Source: an archaeon (GTDB lineage Archaea; Iainarchaeota; Iainarchaeia; Iainarchaeales; 0-14-0-20-34-12). Taken from it: 52,038 nucleotides of DNA. The position numbers and the translations under genes are program-made. The DNA lies in the NCBI GenBank assembly GCA_038046645.1, contig JBBSVU010000017.1, forward strand, positions 1 through 52,038, in the 5' to 3' direction. The notes below the pieces were generated by a model, which had not been told where the DNA came from, did not search any database, and saw nothing but the letters and a program-made list of their open reading frames with translations. Position 1 is the stretch's first letter. Every line of letters begins with the position of its first letter. Positions 9,477 through 36,717 of the stretch are shown piece after piece.

Positions 9477-10196
9477 TTACCCCATGCGCTTTACTGCATT
9501 ATTTGCCTCTAGCAGCTCATCCACTGTACCGGCATCATACCATGCCTTTGCCAATTTGCTTGCCTTCAATGCTTTTTTTGATATGTAATAATTATGGACA
9601 TCACTTATTTCAAGCTCGCCCCTTGCAGATGGTTTCAGCCCTTTTATTACTGAAAAAACATCATTGGTGTACATATAAACACCTATTACTGCCCAAGTGC
9701 TTTTTGGTTCCTTCGGCTTTTCAATTACCCGCAAAACATTGTCTCCCTTTAACATTGCTACCCCTGATTTTTTTGCCTGCTCAATTGTTCCTTTGTACAG
9801 CAAAACCCTTGAAAGTTCTTTTCCTTTTTCGAATTCTTTTACAAAGGGCGATATTGATTCAAAAATTATATTATCTCCATTTATTGCCACAAATTTCTCA
9901 TTCCCCACAAAATCCTCTGCAAGGGATATTGCTTGGGGGATTCCGCCTGCTTCATCCTGTATCTTGTAAGTGAATTTTACCCCAAATTCCTTTCCTGAAC
10001 CCATTAATGCAAATACATCGCCTGCATGTTCTTTACCGCTAACAATTAATATATCCTTTATTCCTGCCTCCTTTAATGTTCCCAATGGATAATAAATCAT
10101 TGGTTTGTCGTAAATAGGCAATAAGTGCTTATTACTTACTAAAGTTAATGGTCTTAATCTGCTCCCCTTGCCGCCAGCTAAGATAATTCCCTTCAT
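9477..10196 (-). CDS. rfbA: glucose-1-phosphate thymidylyltransferase (short form)
   Basis: GIILAGGKGSRLRPLT, NKHLLPIYDKPM, PSARGELEI and WYDAGT motifs. Confidence 0.88.
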   Translation of the reverse strand: MKGIILAGGKGSRLRPLTLVSNKHLLPIYDKPMIYYPLGTLKEAGIKDILIVSGKEHAGDVFALMGSGKEFGVKFTYKIQDEAGGIPQAISLAEDFVGNEKFVAINGDNIIFESISPFVKEFEKGKELSRVLLYKGTIEQAKKSGVAMLKGDNVLRVIEKPKEPKSTWAVIGVYMYTNDVFSVIKGLKPSARGELEISDVHNYYISKKALKASKLAKAWYDAGTVDELLEANNAVKRMG

Positions 10197-11029
10197 TATT
10201 CAAGACACCTCTTTATAGTTAAATATGTATCATACTTACGTTTAAGATAATAACCTAGGTCTGAATAAAGCCAGTTAAAAATTTTAAGTGCTTGAATATT
10301 GCCCCTGTACCTTAAAGCAAAATGATTGCTAAGCAGTTTATTTTTTGTAAGTATTGTTCTATTCAATTTGAGATATTTAATTAGATAATTTTGTATTTCA
10401 GTTAGAAATTCCTTTGTTCCAACTATCTGGAACAACAGTGATTTTGGTTTTTTTGTAAATAAAATGCTTCCATCCCCCTCAAAAGCACCCCTGATAAAAG
10501 ATTTCATAATTGCCTCTTTATTAGCTCTTTTTATTGCATTAGGGAATTTTAAAGTAGTTGATTTATTAGGAATAATCCCAAAAGAAATAAGTTTATTTAC
10601 TATTTTTTTACTTTTTATCTTGAGATGTACTAGGTTATATTCTTTATTTGTTTTTTTTAAAATTGTTTTTTGACTATAAATAGGCCCACCATACCCCAAT
10701 AATTGTTTAATCTTAAAAGTGACATCACTATCTCTTTTATTTACTCTAAGCCCAAAAGAACCATCTTTTGTAACGTAACCATCTGTTGCAAGCCACCCTA
10801 AAACCCATGCCACATTCTCATCAATATTTTCAAAAAAATATTCATTAAGCGAATAGGTTCTTAAATGAATCTTCCATGTGCGTTCTCTTGATTTTAAATG
10901 ATACCTTAACATGCGTTGGCTTATTACCCACTGGGATACACCCAATGTTTTAGCAATTTCTTGCTGTGATTTAAGTTTATTAAAATATTCTTCCACAATG
11001 AGAGGTTTAGGAATGTCATATTGTTGCAT
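10196..11029 (-). CDS. free-standing HTH + LAGLIDADG endonuclease-like protein
   Basis: SQQEIAKTLGVSQWVI HTH; AWVLGWLATDG and SFIRGAFEGDG motifs; likely leaderless ATG at 11029 about 23 nt after a TTATATA box. Confidence 0.85.
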   Translation of the reverse strand: MQQYDIPKPLIVEEYFNKLKSQQEIAKTLGVSQWVISQRMLRYHLKSRERTWKIHLRTYSLNEYFFENIDENVAWVLGWLATDGYVTKDGSFGLRVNKRDSDVTFKIKQLLGYGGPIYSQKTILKKTNKEYNLVHLKIKSKKIVNKLISFGIIPNKSTTLKFPNAIKRANKEAIMKSFIRGAFEGDGSILFTKKPKSLLFQIVGTKEFLTEIQNYLIKYLKLNRTILTKNKLLSNHFALRYRGNIQALKIFNWLYSDLGYYLKRKYDTYLTIKRCLE

Positions 11030-11066
11030 AGGATAAAGATGATTTTTGTAATTATATAATCTTTCG

Positions 11067-11088
11067 GAAGAGTAGATTTCCCTTGAAT
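11067..11088 (-). repeat. 22-bp motif upstream of LAGLIDADG gene, copy 1
   Basis: ATTCAAGGGAAATCTACTCTTC, 21/22 identical to 26642-26663. Confidence 0.85.
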
Positions 11089-11090
11089 AA

Positions 11091-12083
11091 TCAATCAAAT
11101 AAATCCCCCTGCATAATGAGCGTTTTCCACCATTTTTCATTGTTTTTGTACCATTCCACTGTGTTGCGCAAGGCTTTTTTGAATTCATATATAGGTTTCC
11201 AGCCCAATTCATTCCTTATTTTCTCAGAACTCATCGAATATCTTTTATCATGCCCTAGCCTATCCTGCACAAATTGTATCATTTCTTCTCCGTGCCCAAA
11301 TTCTTCCAGAATCAGCTTTGTCAATTCAATATTGCTAAGCTCATTTCCGCCTGCTACATTGTAAACTTCCCCAATTTTGCCTTTCTTTAAGCATAATTCA
11401 ATAGCCTCGCAATTATCAAGCACAAACAACCAATCCCTTACATTTTTTCCATCGCCATAAAGTGGTACTTTTTTATTTCTCATCAAATTTGTGATAAATA
11501 AAGGGAGTATTTTCTCAGGATATTGGTATGGCCCAAAATTATTGCTAGGCCTTACAATCAAAGCAGGCACAGCATATGTGTTGAAATAGCTGCATACTAA
11601 GCGGTCAGCCCCTGCTTTACTTGCAGAATATGGGTTTCTTGGGTTTAAAACAGATTCTTCAGTGAAAGAACCTTCCAAGATGTGCCCATAAACTTCATCA
11701 GTGCTTATGTGGACAAATTTCTTAAGCTTGTGTTTCCTTGCTTCTTCAAGCAAAGTAGCCGTACCTATAACATCTGTTTGCAAAAAATGCATTGGATCCT
11801 TGATTGAGCGGTCAACATGCGTTTCAGCTGCAAAATGAACAACTGCATCACAATCTTTCATTGCCCTGCTTACAATTCTTTGGTTGCAAATATCGCCTTT
11901 TACGAATTTATACCTTTTTCCAATTTCTTTGTCTGCAGCAATGTCTGCAAGATTTTCCTTTCTTCCGCAGTAGGTTAATTTGTCAAGATTTACTATTTCG
12001 CCTTCTGGATTTTTTTTAAGGTAATTCCTTACAAAATTTGAGCCAATAAATCCGCATCCGCCAGTAACAAGTATTTTATCCAT
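11091..12083 (-). CDS. rfbB: dTDP-glucose 4,6-dehydratase
   Basis: TGGCGFIGS, HFAAETHVDRSI, STDEVYG, PYSASKA, RDWL and HDKRY motifs. Confidence 0.95.
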   Translation of the reverse strand: MDKILVTGGCGFIGSNFVRNYLKKNPEGEIVNLDKLTYCGRKENLADIAADKEIGKRYKFVKGDICNQRIVSRAMKDCDAVVHFAAETHVDRSIKDPMHFLQTDVIGTATLLEEARKHKLKKFVHISTDEVYGHILEGSFTEESVLNPRNPYSASKAGADRLVCSYFNTYAVPALIVRPSNNFGPYQYPEKILPLFITNLMRNKKVPLYGDGKNVRDWLFVLDNCEAIELCLKKGKIGEVYNVAGGNELSNIELTKLILEEFGHGEEMIQFVQDRLGHDKRYSMSSEKIRNELGWKPIYEFKKALRNTVEWYKNNEKWWKTLIMQGDLFD

Positions 12084-23101: not shown

Positions 23102-23193
23102 GATGTTGTGGGTTATAGTAAGAGACATATATAATTAAACAAAAATTGTCCCTTACTATAAGATTTAATAAACTCTGCCCCAAGCTAATTAGT

Positions 23194-24372
23194 ATGCCTG
23201 CTGTTAGTTCAAGTCCGCGGTTGAGAAGAGTTTCTGCAGTGAAGGATAGAGTTATCAGAAGATGCAGGCAAGTACCGCAGACTATTGCGCAAAAAGTTAA
23301 TGCTACCTGGGAAAAAACCAAACAGCACTACCGGTTTAGAATGCTAGTAAGAGAATTAAAAGCAAGAAAAGCATTTTTCGAAGAACATTCGTTTCCTTTT
23401 GGGGAATATTTTTCTTTAGCTAAGTCTTCTTCAGCCAGATTCAAACTTGGCCTTAATTTTTTTGAAAATGTTTGGCCGCACGCTGCATTTAATGGAATGG
23501 AAAATCAATTTCTTCTAGAAGCCTCTTTTCGTTCTGCAGAATTTTTTAAGGATAGTGCTGATGCAAAACAAAAAGCCGGGAAATTTGTAGCTGTCTTAAA
23601 ACAGTTAAGGCGAGACAGAAAGCATGTTAGTATTATAACTCTTTTAGACTTGTTTCGTAGGGTAAAGGGAGATTTTGGAGTTTTTGAAAAAAAGGGATCT
23701 TACCATAGATTGGTGAATATATTAAATGAACCCTTTCCATTTCAAAGGATTGAGGATTATCTAGCATCAATGGCAGAACATAAAACAGCGAGGCCTGAGC
23801 GCATAATTAAAGAAAAGGATAATCTTGGTTTAATTGGAAAGGAAATGGTTGGAATAGCAAGGCAAGATAATGTTGTTTTAAGGGTAATTGATAAGGAACA
23901 GTATGCTATCTGGAAGCAATTGTATGAAGAAGGGTTAAATGTAGAACCTATTTTGCCAGCGTCTTCAGACATAGCTGCTGAAACCAAGCTTAAGCCTAGG
24001 AGAAACCAAGTTTTTGTTAAGTCAAAGGTTGTTGGCAGGACGTTGGCTGATTTAATTCATAGCCGGAATTTAGATAGAACTCAGGTAAGGGCGATTGCAA
24101 GGCAAATGATGTCTACCATGGTAAAAGTATGGAAGCATGGTTATGTCCATAAACATCCTCATTTGTTTAATTGGTGTGTTGAATTCGAAGGCGCGCATCC
24201 AAAAGTAACCTTAATTGATTTCTCATTGGTAAAACAAGCCAGCGGTAGAGGCGAAATAATGAAAGATATTGAAAACTTTTCTTCAAAACTTAGTGAATTC
24301 CAAAGGATGTGCAACCAATTTGTTTTTAATCATCCTCAAAATGAAAAGTTAGAAAGAATGGCTTTTGGGTAA
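23194..24372 (+). CDS. orphan protein with basic leader and C-terminal RIO/Kdo-like kinase fold (atypical)
   Basis: GYVHKHPHLFN and TLIDF correspond to HxDxxxxN and DFG; ATG at 23194 after a TTTAATAA box. Confidence 0.65.
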   Translation: MPAVSSSPRLRRVSAVKDRVIRRCRQVPQTIAQKVNATWEKTKQHYRFRMLVRELKARKAFFEEHSFPFGEYFSLAKSSSARFKLGLNFFENVWPHAAFNGMENQFLLEASFRSAEFFKDSADAKQKAGKFVAVLKQLRRDRKHVSIITLLDLFRRVKGDFGVFEKKGSYHRLVNILNEPFPFQRIEDYLASMAEHKTARPERIIKEKDNLGLIGKEMVGIARQDNVVLRVIDKEQYAIWKQLYEEGLNVEPILPASSDIAAETKLKPRRNQVFVKSKVVGRTLADLIHSRNLDRTQVRAIARQMMSTMVKVWKHGYVHKHPHLFNWCVEFEGAHPKVTLIDFSLVKQASGRGEIMKDIENFSSKLSEFQRMCNQFVFNHPQNEKLERMAFG

Positions 24373-25567: not shown

Positions 25568-25596
25568 TATATCCAATAGGGCATATTGAGTTTGTA

Positions 25597-25669
25597 TGCA
25601 GCCGCCGGGATTCGAACCCGGATCAGAGCCTTGGGAAGGCCCGATGCTAGCCATTAACACCACGACTGC
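25597..25669 (-). tRNA. tRNA-Gly(CCC)
   Basis: GCAGTCG/CGGCTGC acceptor, gggcc-TTCCCAA-ggctc anticodon arm, GTTCGAATC T-loop. Confidence 0.95.
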
Positions 25670-25689
25670 ATTACAGATGATAAGCCATG

Positions 25690-26604
25690 CTATGTTTTAA
25701 AAAAATCTATGTTAGCGTACTCAATATCCTTATGCCTTGGAACCTGACCAGTTTCTTTATATTTGAAATATTTATATAAATGTTTTGGGTTATGTGGTCT
25801 GACTACTCTGAAAAATTCATCGATTTTTGATTTTGCAATAACATAAACTTGTTTTTGCAGCATAAATGGCTGCAACTTTAGTTCTTTTAGTACCTCAAAT
25901 ATTTCTTTAAGAAACTTCCTGCTATGGCTAGTTATTTCAATTTTGGCTGATTTTGGGTTATGCCTATGAAATCCACCGTCTGTGTCAAATACTCCTCTAA
26001 TAAATCCAATTTTCAATGCTTTCTTTTCAATTATTTTCTTAGGAATAGTTATCTTATTTTTCTTCTTGCCTATTGGAAACCCGAAGTTATTCACTAAAAA
26101 TTCTTGTAGTTCTTTAGAATAAACCATAGCTAAAATTTGTGATTTATTTTTTCCAGTAAATCTTATGCTTGGATTAACATTAAACAGGCTTTTGAATAGT
26201 GGGCAAATTACTGTAAGAATATATTTTTTATCTGAAATAGCGTTACTGCCTATTGCAATAGCATAATTAGTAGTTATACAACCATCCCCATATAAAGCAC
26301 CTAAAAATTCAGCTAATTTTTCATTGCATTTTGGAATCTTAATATGTTTTAGTTTATTTCTTATTTCAAGCAAAGGTAATTTTGAGTATTTAGATGTTGG
26401 TATTTCTGCTAGGTTGCACAAAATAAAAAATTTCACTAAAGGAATTTTGTGCATTCCGTTAACATATTTTATAACCATGCCTCTAGTTACTTTTAGTTTT
26501 TTAGCTAATGTTGCATATGACTTTTTGGTACGTATTTTAATGTCCCTTAGAATTAGTTTCTGAACATTTTTATTTAAGTTTAGATAATAATTGATAGTAG
26601 CCAT
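25690..26604 (-). CDS. free-standing HTH + LAGLIDADG endonuclease-like protein
   Basis: SYATLAKKLKVTRGMV HTH; AEFLGALYGDG and GFIRGVFDTDG motifs; TTTATATA box about 22 nt upstream. Confidence 0.85.
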   Translation of the reverse strand: MATINYYLNLNKNVQKLILRDIKIRTKKSYATLAKKLKVTRGMVIKYVNGMHKIPLVKFFILCNLAEIPTSKYSKLPLLEIRNKLKHIKIPKCNEKLAEFLGALYGDGCITTNYAIAIGSNAISDKKYILTVICPLFKSLFNVNPSIRFTGKNKSQILAMVYSKELQEFLVNNFGFPIGKKKNKITIPKKIIEKKALKIGFIRGVFDTDGGFHRHNPKSAKIEITSHSRKFLKEIFEVLKELKLQPFMLQKQVYVIAKSKIDEFFRVVRPHNPKHLYKYFKYKETGQVPRHKDIEYANIDFFKT

Positions 26605-26641
26605 TTACTGGATTAGTCTCTCTTAATATATAAACAATTTC

Positions 26642-26663
26642 GAAGAGTAGATTTCCCCTGAAT
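26642..26663 (-). repeat. 22-bp motif upstream of LAGLIDADG gene, copy 2
   Basis: ATTCAGGGGAAATCTACTCTTC. Confidence 0.85.
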
Positions 26664-26665
26664 GG

Positions 26666-26718
26666 CCCCTTTCTTTTCTTCATAAGAAAAGAAAGGCCCC
26701 AGGGTTCAAAGAAAAGAA
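26666..26718. repeat. 53-bp hairpin-containing dispersed repeat
   Basis: 47/53 identical to the reverse complement of 37526-37578. Confidence 0.85.
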
Positions 26719-26752
26719 AGAAAATCAGTTGCAATTAAAATCCAAAAGAAAA

Positions 26753-26878
26753 TTAAGTTGGTTTAATTTTTAATTTTGAAAATTGCTTTTCAGGGAGTGT
26801 GCAGAAGACAAAATTATCTTTTACTAATGCAGGCTTCATTGATTTAATTAATTTGTTCAAATCCTTTATTCCGCCCAT
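26753..26878 (-). pseudogene. truncated N-terminus of a DUF2241/ACT-domain protein
   Basis: MGGIKDLNKLIKSMKPALVKDNFVFCTL resembles the M.G..DL..L..SM.P.L....VFCT family start; stops after 41 aa at the repeat tract. Confidence 0.6.
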
Positions 26879-32233: not shown

Positions 32234-33067
32234 TCAGAATTCAATATGGTCAGCATCTCCAACAACAATTCTGCCTAAATTTGTATTCGGGTTAACTACA
32301 ACAAAAAAGCATTTTTTTATTTCTTCATTTAAATCTGCCTTTTTACTGTGTCTGCCCAATTCGCTCATCTTAACGCCAGCCCGCACTAATGTAAAATAAT
32401 GTTTCTTGAATTGTTTTTGCAAAGATATGCCATTTTTTACTTGACTCATATCAAATCCGGAAAATTCTTTAACCTTAAATTTGCCATTTTGAGAAAGATC
32501 TTCAACCACGATTCCATCCATGCCCCCCTCGAATCGCATGGTTCTTGCAAATCCCACAGCAGGAATCCCTAAAGAAGCAATTCTTTGCATTGCTTTCTGC
32601 TCATTTTCCAAAAATTTAAATCTGCCAGGTTTTAAGAAAATAGTGCCATCAAAAAATTCAGCATTTTGCCCATGCCTTGATAGTTCGATAACTGGAGATT
32701 TTGCTTTTTTTGACAAAGCTAGTTTATGAAGATTGACCATTAAGTCAGGCAATCTATATACTTTTAATGCAAGCATCATTTTTTTACCTGTTTTTGGATC
32801 TCTAACAGGGTTCAATGAGAGCACTACCCTTCCTTGCCCAATGCCTAAAATCCGGCTATCTGCTTTCGTGAAGTAGCCCTTGCGCATATCTGAAAAAATC
32901 TGGCCATTCCCCGCTAAAATAGCAGCATCTGAAATAGAATTTAATGCAGTTGACCCTCTTCTCGCAGCTTCTTTTGCAATCCTTCTCCTTGGCCTACTTG
33001 ATTTAATCCTGTGCCTTTGCTTTTTTGGCAAAGTTGAAAGATTAACCCTTCGTGGAATTTTCGGCAT
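32234..33067 (-). CDS. orphan protein with basic leader and degenerate kinase-like fold
   Basis: LGIGQGRVV Gly-loop, LALKV, helix-C Glu (ENE), VVEDL hinge and terminal VGDAD. Confidence 0.55.
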   Translation of the reverse strand: MPKIPRRVNLSTLPKKQRHRIKSSRPRRRIAKEAARRGSTALNSISDAAILAGNGQIFSDMRKGYFTKADSRILGIGQGRVVLSLNPVRDPKTGKKMMLALKVYRLPDLMVNLHKLALSKKAKSPVIELSRHGQNAEFFDGTIFLKPGRFKFLENEQKAMQRIASLGIPAVGFARTMRFEGGMDGIVVEDLSQNGKFKVKEFSGFDMSQVKNGISLQKQFKKHYFTLVRAGVKMSELGRHSKKADLNEEIKKCFFVVVNPNTNLGRIVVGDADHIEF

Positions 33068-33214
33068 ATTACTTATTATTAATCAAAATCTATTTATAAT
33101 ACTTAAATCTACCTTCTATGAGTAATCAAAAACAATTCAATCAGTGTGTTGCATGATATTTATCAAATATGCAATATATTTGTTTTATATGCGCAACACA
33201 CCGCTGGTGATTCT

Positions 33215-34435
33215 ATGAAGTATGAGGATTTTATTGATGAACATTACAAACCAAAAAAGACCGATTTAATTTGTAAATTCAGGTTGAAAGCAAAAGGCTT
33301 TACATTTGAAAAAGCTGCTGGCGGGGTTTCTGCAGAATCAACAATTGGAACATGGACAGAATTGACAACAGAAAAAGAATATATGAGAAAGCTAGCAGGA
33401 ATTGTTTTTGAATTGAAAAACCCTTATTTTTCAGTGGCATATCCAATTGAATTGTTTGAAGAAGGAAATATGCCAAATATGCTTTCAGGCATTGCAGGCA
33501 ATTTATTTGGCTTGAAAGAGATTGATAAGGTAAGGTTAGAGGATATTATTTTCCCAAAAAAATTGGCAAAAAGTTTCAAAGGCCCAAAATATGGGATTAA
33601 TGGGGTAAGAAAAATCACAAGGGTAAAGAACAGGCCGCTTGTCGGAACAATTGTAAAACCAAAATTAGGGCTGAATTTTAAAGATCATGCTAAGGTAGCA
33701 TATGACGCATGGTTTGGGGGCTGTGATGTTGTAAAGGATGATGAAAATCTTTCCTCACAATCATTCAACAGGTTTGAGCCGAGGTTGAAAGAAACCTTGC
33801 GGTTGAAAAGAAAAGCAGAAAAGGAAACTGGTGAATTTAAGGCATATATGATTAATGTTACTGCATCTGGAAATGAGATGATTAGAAGGGCAAGGCTTGT
33901 TGAAGATTCAGGCAATGAATATATGATGGTTGATATTCTGACAGTTGGATGGGCAGCATTGCAGGATTTGCGGGATTTAAATGTTAATTTAGTAATGCAT
34001 GCACATAGGGCGGGGCATGCAGCTTTAACAAAAGATAAAGAACACGGAATTTCAATGCCTGTGCTTGCAAAATGTTCTCGCCTGATTGGGGTTGACCAAT
34101 TGCACGTAGGTACAGCTGTTGGAAAAATGTCAGAAGGAAAATCTGATGTTCTTGAAAATATTAAAGCCTGCAAGGAAGAGCTTTATGGAATAAAAAAAGT
34201 GATGCCTGTTGCTTCTGGTGGTCTGCACCCAGGGCATGTTGAAGATTTATACAAAATATTTGGAAAAGATTTCATTGCACAGGCAGGCGGAGGAATCCAT
34301 GGGCATCCGCAAGGTACAGTAAAAGGCGCTATGGCTATGAGGCAGGCTATGGATGCAGTTGTTCAAGGTTACACATTGAAAGAATATGCTAAAAAGCATA
34401 AAGAATTAGCAATTGCTTTGGAGAAATGGAAATAA
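33215..34435 (+). CDS. rbcL: form III ribulose-1,5-bisphosphate carboxylase
   Basis: AESTIGTW, GTIVKPKLG, KDDENL, HAHRAGH, GKM, SGGLHP and GGGIHGHP motifs; GGTGA SD before ATG 33215. Confidence 0.95.
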   Translation: MKYEDFIDEHYKPKKTDLICKFRLKAKGFTFEKAAGGVSAESTIGTWTELTTEKEYMRKLAGIVFELKNPYFSVAYPIELFEEGNMPNMLSGIAGNLFGLKEIDKVRLEDIIFPKKLAKSFKGPKYGINGVRKITRVKNRPLVGTIVKPKLGLNFKDHAKVAYDAWFGGCDVVKDDENLSSQSFNRFEPRLKETLRLKRKAEKETGEFKAYMINVTASGNEMIRRARLVEDSGNEYMMVDILTVGWAALQDLRDLNVNLVMHAHRAGHAALTKDKEHGISMPVLAKCSRLIGVDQLHVGTAVGKMSEGKSDVLENIKACKEELYGIKKVMPVASGGLHPGHVEDLYKIFGKDFIAQAGGGIHGHPQGTVKGAMAMRQAMDAVVQGYTLKEYAKKHKELAIALEKWK

Positions 34436-36033: not shown

Positions 36034-36717
36034 ATGCGAAGAATTCCATCAAATAAAAAAAGAAATCTTGCTAGGAAAAAGTATGCTAAGCCAGAAGTAA
36101 TTACTGCAACAGGCCATAAAGCACGAACCTACTCTTCAGCAATCAGGTATGGGTTAAGAAGAGGCAGAAAAAACCTTGAGTTTTATTCAAGGGAAAATGT
36201 TGACCCAGATAGATTAGCGATGCAGTGGGAATTGCTCGAATCCGGAATCCCAGTCGAAGAACCATTTGAAAGAAAGCCAAAAGGCCCAAATCGCCTGATG
36301 GGTTATTTTTCTATGGGTGATGCCACAGTAGAAGATGTTCTGGAGAGATTAAGTCCAAAAGAAAAGCGCAGCGTTGCCAAGCAGATGATCAGCCTAATTT
36401 CAAGAATTCATAATAAGGGCATGATATTTAAACATCCGCACTTGCAGAATATTGCAATTCAAAAAGGACGGGTTAGAATAGGGCTATTTGACTTCAAATT
36501 AATTAGCAGAGTAAATGTAGACTGGCATAATCCAAAAAGCATTTTTGATTCATTTCGTGTTGAATATGGCACTTTAAGGAATAATATGATTAAGTTAGGA
36601 TTGAGTTTAGCTGAACAAGAAAGCCTATTTGAAGCGCTTATCTCAAGGTATGCTAGGTTACCAAATACTGAGAAAAGTAATTTATATCAATTAGTGAGAA
36701 CAAGAGTGTTGCTTTAA
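36034..36717 (+). CDS. orphan protein with basic leader and RIO/Kdo-like kinase fold (atypical)
   Basis: GIPVEEP, IHNKGMIFKHPHLQNI and LFDF motifs. Confidence 0.65.
   Translation: MRRIPSNKKRNLARKKYAKPEVITATGHKARTYSSAIRYGLRRGRKNLEFYSRENVDPDRLAMQWELLESGIPVEEPFERKPKGPNRLMGYFSMGDATVEDVLERLSPKEKRSVAKQMISLISRIHNKGMIFKHPHLQNIAIQKGRVRIGLFDFKLISRVNVDWHNPKSIFDSFRVEYGTLRNNMIKLGLSLAEQESLFEALISRYARLPNTEKSNLYQLVRTRVLL

Follow-up and report, generated by a model that had tools for sequence, protein, structure and literature searches.

Why should two free-standing LAGLIDADG genes, each with a docking site of its own, start behind almost the same 22 nucleotides (nt) of DNA? The question is raised by a 52,038-nt stretch (the window, to which all plain coordinates refer) that forms contig C17 of an archaeal genome, G000, of 1.17 Mb and 89% completeness; the window carries archaeal rRNA genes. 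The initial annotation had proposed that the repeated 22-mer is either a cassette end or recombination site, or a shared operator, of one undescribed family of intron-less LAGLIDADG elements. Our analysis indicates that it is probably a promoter box of the host, carried by two separate LAGLIDADG genes that would hence be transcribed together with the host homologous-recombination genes, with gene 1 likely homing at rfbA and bringing a replacement start and gene 2 likely acting in the same way at tRNA-Gly.

The two copies of the 22-mer, at 11067-11088 and 26642-26663, both lie on the minus strand and are one mismatch apart, as had been described, and no match occurred in 100 shuffles. The TATA box TTATATAA (11052-11059) follows copy 1 after 7 nt, and the ATG of gene 1 (11029) comes 22 nt further on. 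The spacing is the same at copy 2, with the TATA box TTTATATA at 26627-26634 and the gene 2 ATG at 26604. The succession of box, TATA box and ATG reported earlier was thus confirmed, the distance from TATA to ATG being 22 nt in both copies, and given this distance the gene 1 mRNA is likely leaderless, judging from archaeal promoter geometry. Copy 1 begins 2 nt past the rfbB stop codon (11091-11093), which also agrees with the earlier description. The promoter features are as follows (BRE, transcription factor B recognition element).

11067 to 11088, minus strand: promoter box copy 1, a box of host repair and replication genes and likely transcription factor operator (shuffle test and genome-wide scan)
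11060 to 11066, minus strand: heptamer at the BRE position, in the interval between box and TATA box (from the sequence)
11052 to 11059, minus strand: TATA box of gene 1 (from the sequence)
26642 to 26663, minus strand: promoter box copy 2 (shuffle test and genome-wide scan)
26627 to 26634, minus strand: TATA box of gene 2, with the ATG 22 nt downstream (from the sequence)
26664 to 26757, minus strand: purine/pyrimidine hairpin repeat upstream of box copy 2 (from the sequence)

A hairpin like that of box copy 2 was also present upstream of radA, mcm and two small-gene boxes.

The genome was scanned with a matrix built from 19 seed sites at a threshold of at least 14 bits, and 27 box sites were obtained in G000, compared with 0, 1 and 1 in three shuffled genomes. 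At 23 of these sites a TATA-like box begins 7 to 9 nt downstream. On the host side, the genes behind the boxes were radA, nurA, herA, mcm and nre (Pfam, NCBIfam), and another box precedes a 504-aa PolB-like gene (weak NCBIfam match; Atlas score 0.90). The remaining sites belong to three open reading frames (ORFs) of unknown function, eight tnpB genes, two tnpB-type remnants and seven free LAGLIDADG genes; one of the 27 has a low score and no TATA box and is likely due to chance. None of the 27 sites was a ribosomal-protein or rRNA promoter. Among the seven free-standing LAGLIDADG genes of G000 that were found independently by Pfam, five carry the box. Since 20 of the 27 copies precede non-LAGLIDADG genes or remnants, the genome-wide scan for co-occurrence with LAGLIDADG genes turned out against the cassette end, a result that had been set beforehand to count against it.

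Several of these promoters are related beyond the box itself. Those of radA (G000:C6:8318) and an 87-aa ORF (C6:27725) have 119 nt in common upstream of the box, and 34 nt in common with a third site, while the box core at radA, herA and a 56-aa ORF reads GGG in G000 and GCG in the same-genus genome G001. The shared upstream tracts and core variants suggest concerted evolution or copying of promoter modules. The 87-aa ORF matched no family in Pfam, NCBIfam or Atlas; it may be similar to SSB (single-stranded DNA-binding protein) or PC4. The eight tnpB genes are near-identical and lie on contigs C9, C11, C14, C16, C20, C23 and C25, several of them at contig ends, and a short tnpB-derived element in the region of G000:C1:61174 (L010) has the box, a TATA box, a 3' fragment of tnpB and a right end with a hairpin, and lacks an intact ORF. 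No Y1 transposase for the tnpB elements was found in the G000 assembly, which is 89% complete.

The box was then followed through the order of this archaeon. In 41 genomes, an exact 18-nt pattern gave 24 matches in G000, 17 in G001, five each in G012 and G023 and single matches in five more genomes, with none in the other 32, and the reversed control gave zero everywhere. The G001 boxes are orthologous at mcm, radA, nurA, herA, the PolB-like gene and the 56-aa ORF. A degenerate pattern, in which the core lies 23 to 28 nt before a TATA box, was tuned on the radA regions themselves and occurred upstream of radA at 24 of the 30 loci listed out of 34 matches (mean of 0.3 and maximum of 2 in shuffles). 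At nurA, which served as an independent test, the same pattern was found in 19 of 28 upstream regions, two loci having been dropped for short flanks. It was absent before the second orc1/cdc6 gene (0/30) and before rfbA (0/27). The radA and nurA boxes thus have a fixed spacing in most families of the order and occur in lineage-specific variants. These patterns make it likely that the box is a host operator of a repair regulon comprising recombination and replication genes, and a role as a common operator, one of the two offered in the initial annotation, is the likely one; ownership by a LAGLIDADG family is not supported, because the operator is that of the host (radA, nurA, herA, mcm and nre). 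Sites just upstream of the BRE are typical of archaeal activators, and from this position the predicted box-binding factor is likely an activator. In other families, exact boxes were also seen before PIN-like, DNA methyltransferase-like, restriction-like and small unknown ORFs (L042-L044 and L051-L054; labels assigned by eye).

Two candidate explanations for the box were rejected. The second Orc1/Cdc6 as an autoregulated regulator was dismissed because none of 30 genomes has a box on the coding strand of its gene (0/30 within 700 nt); this protein is also present in genomes with a box-less radA, such as G028 and G035, and the G000 box near its gene faces the divergent 56-aa ORF, although the protein may still be the one that binds the box. 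A replication origin with origin recognition boxes (ORB) was dismissed as well: the boxes, which may resemble ORB cores in sequence, are single, dispersed and oriented toward a TATA box, with no cluster near either orc1/cdc6 gene.

Both genes behind the window copies are predicted to encode homing endonucleases. The two proteins pass the Pfam cut-off for LAGLIDADG_3 and have two motifs each, in agreement with the initial annotation, which had also given them a common helix-turn-helix (HTH) region; that part came out weaker than claimed, as the HTH matches of gene 1 are below the cut-off (HTH_50, E value of 3e-4) and gene 2 has no HTH in Pfam. The two can be aligned only in the LAGLIDADG part (28% over 163 aa), and the N-termini do not align. 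Neither gene matched an intein or Hint domain and no Rfam intron family was found in the window, confirming the earlier view that no intein or intron surrounds them, and each has its own promoter, start and stop.

10196 to 11029, minus strand: gene 1, predicted free-standing double-motif LAGLIDADG endonuclease of 277 aa with an N-terminal HTH-like region, of the rfbA-docking family (Pfam, fold, motifs and locus survey)
25690 to 26604, minus strand: gene 2, predicted free-standing double-motif LAGLIDADG endonuclease of 304 aa, of the tRNA-Gly-docking family (Pfam and locus survey)

The predicted structure of gene 1 (predicted local distance difference test score, 83) gave I-Tsp061I as the best Foldseek match (E value of 4e-7), with I-DmoI at 6e-5; further matches were bI3, I-AniI and I-SceI, and a WhiA structure was at rank 16. 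It has in common with I-Tsp061I and I-DmoI, two monomeric enzymes of archaeal introns, the double-motif LAGLIDADG fold and the acidic residues, but it is only 15 to 17% identical to them, adds the N-terminal HTH-like region and sits in no intron. The acidic residues of both motifs are intact in gene 1 itself. Of the 20 full-length members of its family, 19 keep the first motif intact, the exception having Asn in place of Asp, and 18 gave a match to the second. Genes 1 and 2 belong to separate families, each with its own docking gene. Thus, what had been called one family of intron-less LAGLIDADG elements held up with respect to mobility, the lack of introns and the presence of empty alleles in relatives, while the single family had to be given up because the docking genes differ.

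Gene 1 lies between rfbB and rfbA, and its stop codon overlaps the ATG of rfbA (TAATG, 10194-10198). The GAGGTG at 10206-10211 lies within its 3' end, so that gene 1 contains the Shine-Dalgarno (SD) sequence and start of rfbA as had been noted.

11091 to 12083, minus strand: rfbB, dTDP-glucose 4,6-dehydratase (TIGR01181, over the cut-off)
11095 to 11114, minus strand: possible vestige of the former rfbA start, decayed and now part of the last rfbB codons; weak (local match to two empty-allele rfbA starts)
10206 to 10211, minus strand: SD-like GAGGTG within the gene 1 3' end, at a position suited to the rfbA start (from the sequence)
10125 to 10196, minus strand: first approximately 24 rfbA codons, putative replacement 5' end (from the stranded starts in L167, L173 and L169)
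9477 to 10196, minus strand: rfbA/rmlA-like glucose-1-phosphate thymidylyltransferase gene, the target gene (best families rmlA_long and rmlA, below the curated cut-offs)

Comparison of the rfbB-rfbA junction in relatives, which had been suggested as a check, did yield empty alleles: in G001, rfbB and rfbA are separated by 56 nt with nothing inserted, and the last rfbB codons of the window differ from those of this relative. Close orthologues of gene 1 (52 to 59%) were present in 5 of the 195 other genomes of the order, while the rfbA start was matched in 112 of 196, and gene 1 stood upstream of rfbA in only 2 of the 27 other scorable rfbA loci. A single-protein scan of metagenomes gave no relative, and a search with the alignment brought in a further 14 loci from metagenomes and 8 from genomes; the removal of seven duplicates left 21 nonredundant gene 1 loci, including ones from Pacearchaeota, Woesearchaeota and a Planctomycetia bin. 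In all 21, rfbA lies directly downstream, with gaps of -13 to +14 nt, and the upstream neighbor varies. At three of these loci the nuclease gene is preceded by a stranded rfbA start, of 18 codons in L167, 22 in L173 and 23 in L169, with DNA identities to the working start of 70%, 61% and 67%, respectively. Since the stranded start is only 61 to 70% identical to the working one, the latter appears to be a diverged replacement rather than a duplication of the target. A fourth locus, L182, has a decayed stranded start as judged by eye. Decayed nuclease remnants were found at the rfbA site in G093 and G109 (2 of 20 loci fetched), and in G109 the box is kept. In a 47-row tree built from the rfbA body (from residue 25 on, with short or truncated rows left out), the eight element-bearing alleles need eight changes, at least seven of them forced by strong branches; these alleles sit among empty ones, several of them next to alleles from the same genus or family. 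Taken together, the data make it likely that gene 1 inserts into rfbA and brings a replacement start.

Two further observations bear on the target and its neighborhood. The residues before NKH in RfbA were VT at 58 of 113 element-free sites and at none of six element-bearing ones (by eye; P = 0.016, post hoc and confounded by kinship), and VT was present in 3 of 15 additional gene 1 loci, so the VT bias is only a hint of a homing-target preference. The rfbB gene of G001 (L126:2915-4981) contains an intein just before the conserved TDEVYG motif (Pfam Intein_splicing), which the window rfbB lacks; with gene 1 in G000, one genus thus shows two different invaders of the rfbB-rfbA pair. A clade sister to gene 1 (31 to 37% identity; L136, L137, L138 and L140) was found in four genomes directly upstream of pth2, encoding peptidyl-tRNA hydrolase 2, with an overlapping or near-overlapping start, and pth2 may be a further target gene for a strategy of the gene 1 type.

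The distribution of the box among gene 1 copies indicates how the two came together. All six copies of this order have the box 71 to 82 nt upstream; these are from five genomes plus L162, which was assigned to the order by an rfbA start identical to that of G107 (G107 itself could not be scored as the empty twin of L162, as its contig ends at the rfbA start). In contrast, only one of 11 copies outside the order, inserted at the same rfbA site, has a box, which is at 171 nt and at chance level. Because distant copies insert without it, the element moves without the box, which removes the reading of the 22-mer as a cassette end. The contrast of 6/6 with 1/11 also makes it likely that gene 1 acquired the box after entering this order.

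Gene 2 has a comparable relation to tRNA genes.

25596 to 25670, minus strand: tRNA-Gly(CCC), the likely target, with a possibly replaced 5' part (19 nt downstream of gene 2)
26758 to 26878, minus strand: 5' stump of an ACT-domain gene, approximately 40 codons, at the left junction of the copy 2 insertion (gene intact in the empty allele of G001)

The family of gene 2 was found at 21 loci in 19 of 196 genomes. A tRNA gene lies within 120 nt of the gene 2 stop at 19 of the 21 loci (17 tRNA-Gly and 2 intron-containing calls labelled Phe), and at the other two a tRNA-Gly gene lies upstream; orientation to the tRNA may be sense or antisense. In G001 the tRNA-Gly(CCC) site is empty and the ACT-domain gene intact. 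The window order at copy 2 is ACT stump, hairpin repeat, box and gene 2, and the break in ACT-gene homology at the end of the stump places the left junction approximately 95 nt upstream of the box. Of 20 gene 2 homologues, 14 have the box core within 120 nt upstream (mean of 0.9 in shuffles; one of the 14 misplaced), and 6 to 7 have it together with a strict TATA box. Compared with the empty allele of G001, the tRNA-Gly gene has differences at 7 of 31 positions in its 5' part and at 2 of 43 in its 3' part (P = 0.025, post hoc, one pair), a hint that the 5' part has been replaced.

Among the docking sites of the gene 2 family all three Gly anticodons are represented, and introns occur in several of these tRNAs. 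A pair of tRNA-Gly genes (CCC and GCC) on the opposite strand flanks the gene 2 homologue in L147, L149 and L150. In G000, four additional free LAGLIDADG genes (C1:70941-72143, C1:76448, C6:55870 and C24:11895) terminate at or within tRNA genes (Arg, Thr, Gly and Ala), and the one at tRNA-Arg lacks the box. At G000:C6:80008-80093, ARAGORN called an intron-bearing tRNA with the anticodon TCA under the label selenocysteine; it may be a miscalled intron-containing tRNA.

The sequence evidence as a whole makes the following mechanism the most likely one. A host factor would bind the box and raise transcription of recombination and replication genes, and the LAGLIDADG and tnpB genes with the same box would be expressed at the same time; as the nuclease genes carry the host box, they would be transcribed when the host recombination genes are on. 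Each nuclease would cut the empty allele of its own docking gene, gene 1 doing so near codons 18 to 24 of empty rfbA alleles, and repair by RadA, NurA and HerA would copy the element in. The unit copied with gene 1 would comprise a ribosome-binding site, a start codon and about 22 recoded rfbA codons, so the host gene would survive. The old rfbA start would be stranded upstream and decay, with the promoter box taking its place, and gene 2 would do likewise at tRNA-Gly genes. A broader proposition is that the order has an undescribed SOS-like homologous-recombination regulon and that at least three unrelated kinds of selfish nuclease (the rfbA-docking LAGLIDADG proteins, the tRNA-docking ones and TnpB) repeatedly took the host lineage's version of the operator on entry, so that cutting would occur only when break repair is induced; we hold this tentatively and put it at slightly below an even chance.

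A number of results weigh against these interpretations. With respect to the regulon, two of the seven Pfam-detected free LAGLIDADG genes of G000 lack the box, as do 6 of 30 radA and 9 of 28 nurA upstream regions when judged by the degenerate pattern; no box precedes the second orc1/cdc6 gene on its coding strand (0/30), so that this comparison yielded no regulator; and mcm, being among the box genes, would be as compatible with a signal from the cell cycle as with one from damage. With respect to gene 1, identity to G001 over rfbA codons 1 to 22 is 50 of 66 nt compared with 49 to 59 of 66 in later blocks, which is no clear drop, and all three clear stranded fragments are from distant loci outside this order. 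The possible remnant at 11095-11114 is a weak one, as 2.6% of shuffles gave an equally good match in a post hoc comparison. The scatter in the rfbA tree could also mean many losses of an old insertion, and a strain-level empty allele was not seen in four runs, where runs with a partial share held low-depth copies of the same allele and no joint across the gene. With respect to gene 2, no significant stranded tRNA fragment was found upstream in 19 loci tested, except for three with a whole second tRNA-Gly gene.

Four other explanations were weighed against the host operator. The view of the motif as an end or recombination site in a single mobile family of LAGLIDADG cassettes draws on the start of copy 1 only 2 nt past the rfbB stop, on the seven free LAGLIDADG genes of G000 that carry it and on the copying of promoter modules within the genome, as in the 119 nt common to the radA and 87-aa ORF boxes. 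We regard it as barely tenable, however, because 20 of the 27 copies stand before other genes or remnants, including core single-copy genes with an order-wide box, because the position of the motif is tied to the TATA box and not to insertion junctions (that of copy 2 being approximately 95 nt away), because no matching motif occurs at the 3' ends and because 10 of 11 homologues outside the order occupy the same site without it. Nearly as improbable is a role of the LAGLIDADG proteins as the box-binding factors, namely as domesticated, autoregulating transcription factors of the WhiA type. Their distribution is patchy (11 and 19 of 196 genomes for the two families), unlike that of the box, which spans the order, nearly all members keep the acidic catalytic residues, the WhiA/DUF199 score was 27.8 bits against a cut-off of 44.1, each of the two families has a docking gene of its own, and decayed copies exist; these points outweigh the HTH-like N-terminus of gene 1, the weak WhiA-family matches of gene 2, the WhiA structure at rank 16 and the precedent of I-TevI, which, in the available text of the source, represses itself via an operator over its own promoter (PMC2988022).

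The box could also be a portable promoter from the left end of tnpB elements of the IS200/IS605 group, spread by these elements and captured by host genes and endonucleases, in which case it need not mark a regulon. Eight tnpB genes and two remnants do carry it, often behind a common hairpin segment of 50 to 58 nt, and it precedes tnpB in G001 and G023 too. However, a tnpB origin sits poorly with the fixed spacing that the box keeps at radA and nurA across most of the order's families, with its lineage-specific variants, with a set of box-bearing host genes that nearly all act in DNA metabolism (none of the 27 being for ribosomal proteins or rRNA) and with the lack of a Y1 transposase in the 89%-complete genome, and we consider it quite improbable. 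A reading that we consider unlikely, without dismissing it so firmly, keeps the host operator but makes it one of S-phase or growth-phase genes, or a repressor site, rather than part of a damage response, with the nucleases tied to replication timing. The genes radA, nurA, herA and nre, all of break repair, argue against it, as does the position just upstream of the BRE that is generally characteristic of archaeal activators; what speaks for it is mcm in the gene set and the dissimilarity of the box to the Sulfolobales hexamer, as that is given in the available parts of the papers (PMC6061795, PMC9738581). A host operator of repair genes, adopted by the two nuclease families, thus remained the preferred interpretation.

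It resembles several known systems, as these are described in the available portions of the sources. In Sulfolobales, the DNA damage-responsive element (DDRE), an ANTTTC hexamer, is found in the promoters of DNA-damage genes (ups, ced and tfb3) and is drawn beside the BRE and TATA box (PMC6061795, PMC9738581), and the orc1-2 promoter itself holds a DDRE (PMC9738581). The Orc1-2/DDRE regulon is thus similar in having a short motif at archaeal DNA-repair promoters next to the BRE/TATA and a single proposed regulator. The box differs in its length of about 18 to 22 nt, in its reverse strand, which reads GATTTC and not ANTTTC, and in its genes (radA, nurA, herA, mcm and nre rather than ups, ced and tfb3), and also in its absence before the second orc1/cdc6 gene of this order (0/30) and its presence at selfish nucleases. 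For the replacement start, the closest parallels were endonuclease insertions with a foreign gene end in fungal mitochondria, at atp6 of Allomyces macrogynus, atp6/cox2 of Phlebia and rps3 of Ophiostoma (PMC4019555). There, too, an endonuclease sits in a host gene with a diverged replacement end and the original end stranded, which is matched at 3 of 21 gene 1 loci (L167, L169 and L173), but the fungal cases concern 3' ends, whereas gene 1 affects a 5' end, on prokaryotic chromosomes and in several phyla. The free-standing endonucleases SegB, SegF, SegG and MobE of T4-like phages carry out intronless homing and adopt host promoter classes (PMC2988022, PMC3984707, PMC2330249). They are similar in lacking an intron or intein, in having conserved targets that include tRNA genes (SegB) and in embedding host expression signals in the element; they differ in being GIY-YIG or HNH enzymes of phages that cut hundreds to thousands of bases away, while genes 1 and 2 are cellular double-motif LAGLIDADG genes in or against their target.

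In a search of titles and abstract openings that covered few subscription journals and no supplements, no literature was found that dealt with the box, with insertion at rfbA or with LAGLIDADG genes of the free-standing kind in DPANN archaea. With the box, repair control in an uncultured DPANN lineage would have a defined operator and a defined set of genes, of which we found none in print, and the regulator should then be findable by DNA pull-down. The replacement start carried by gene 1 would be a route by which intron-less homing endonucleases enter a prokaryotic protein-coding gene without breaking it, and the gain of the box after entry would be a clean case of selfish genes adopting host regulation. 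In bacteria, prophages, colicins and integrons capture LexA boxes, which wires selfish genes to the host repair regulon. The present case differs in its archaeal TATA/BRE promoters, its likely activator site and its passengers, which are homing endonucleases and TnpB. The analysis also provides predicted targets for two compact meganuclease families, namely, rfbA codons of about 18 to 24 and tRNA-Gly.

Other ORFs of the window were recorded in passing. The protein encoded at 4-984 has a GGDEF (diguanylate cyclase) domain, here in an archaeon, with an arginine-rich N-terminus. Three ORFs, at 23146-24372, 32234-33067 and 36034-36717, have very basic N-termini and kinase-like motifs recognized by eye, with no Pfam match. 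The ORF at 33146-34435 encodes a RuBisCO large-subunit-like protein of 429 aa, labelled from its translation.

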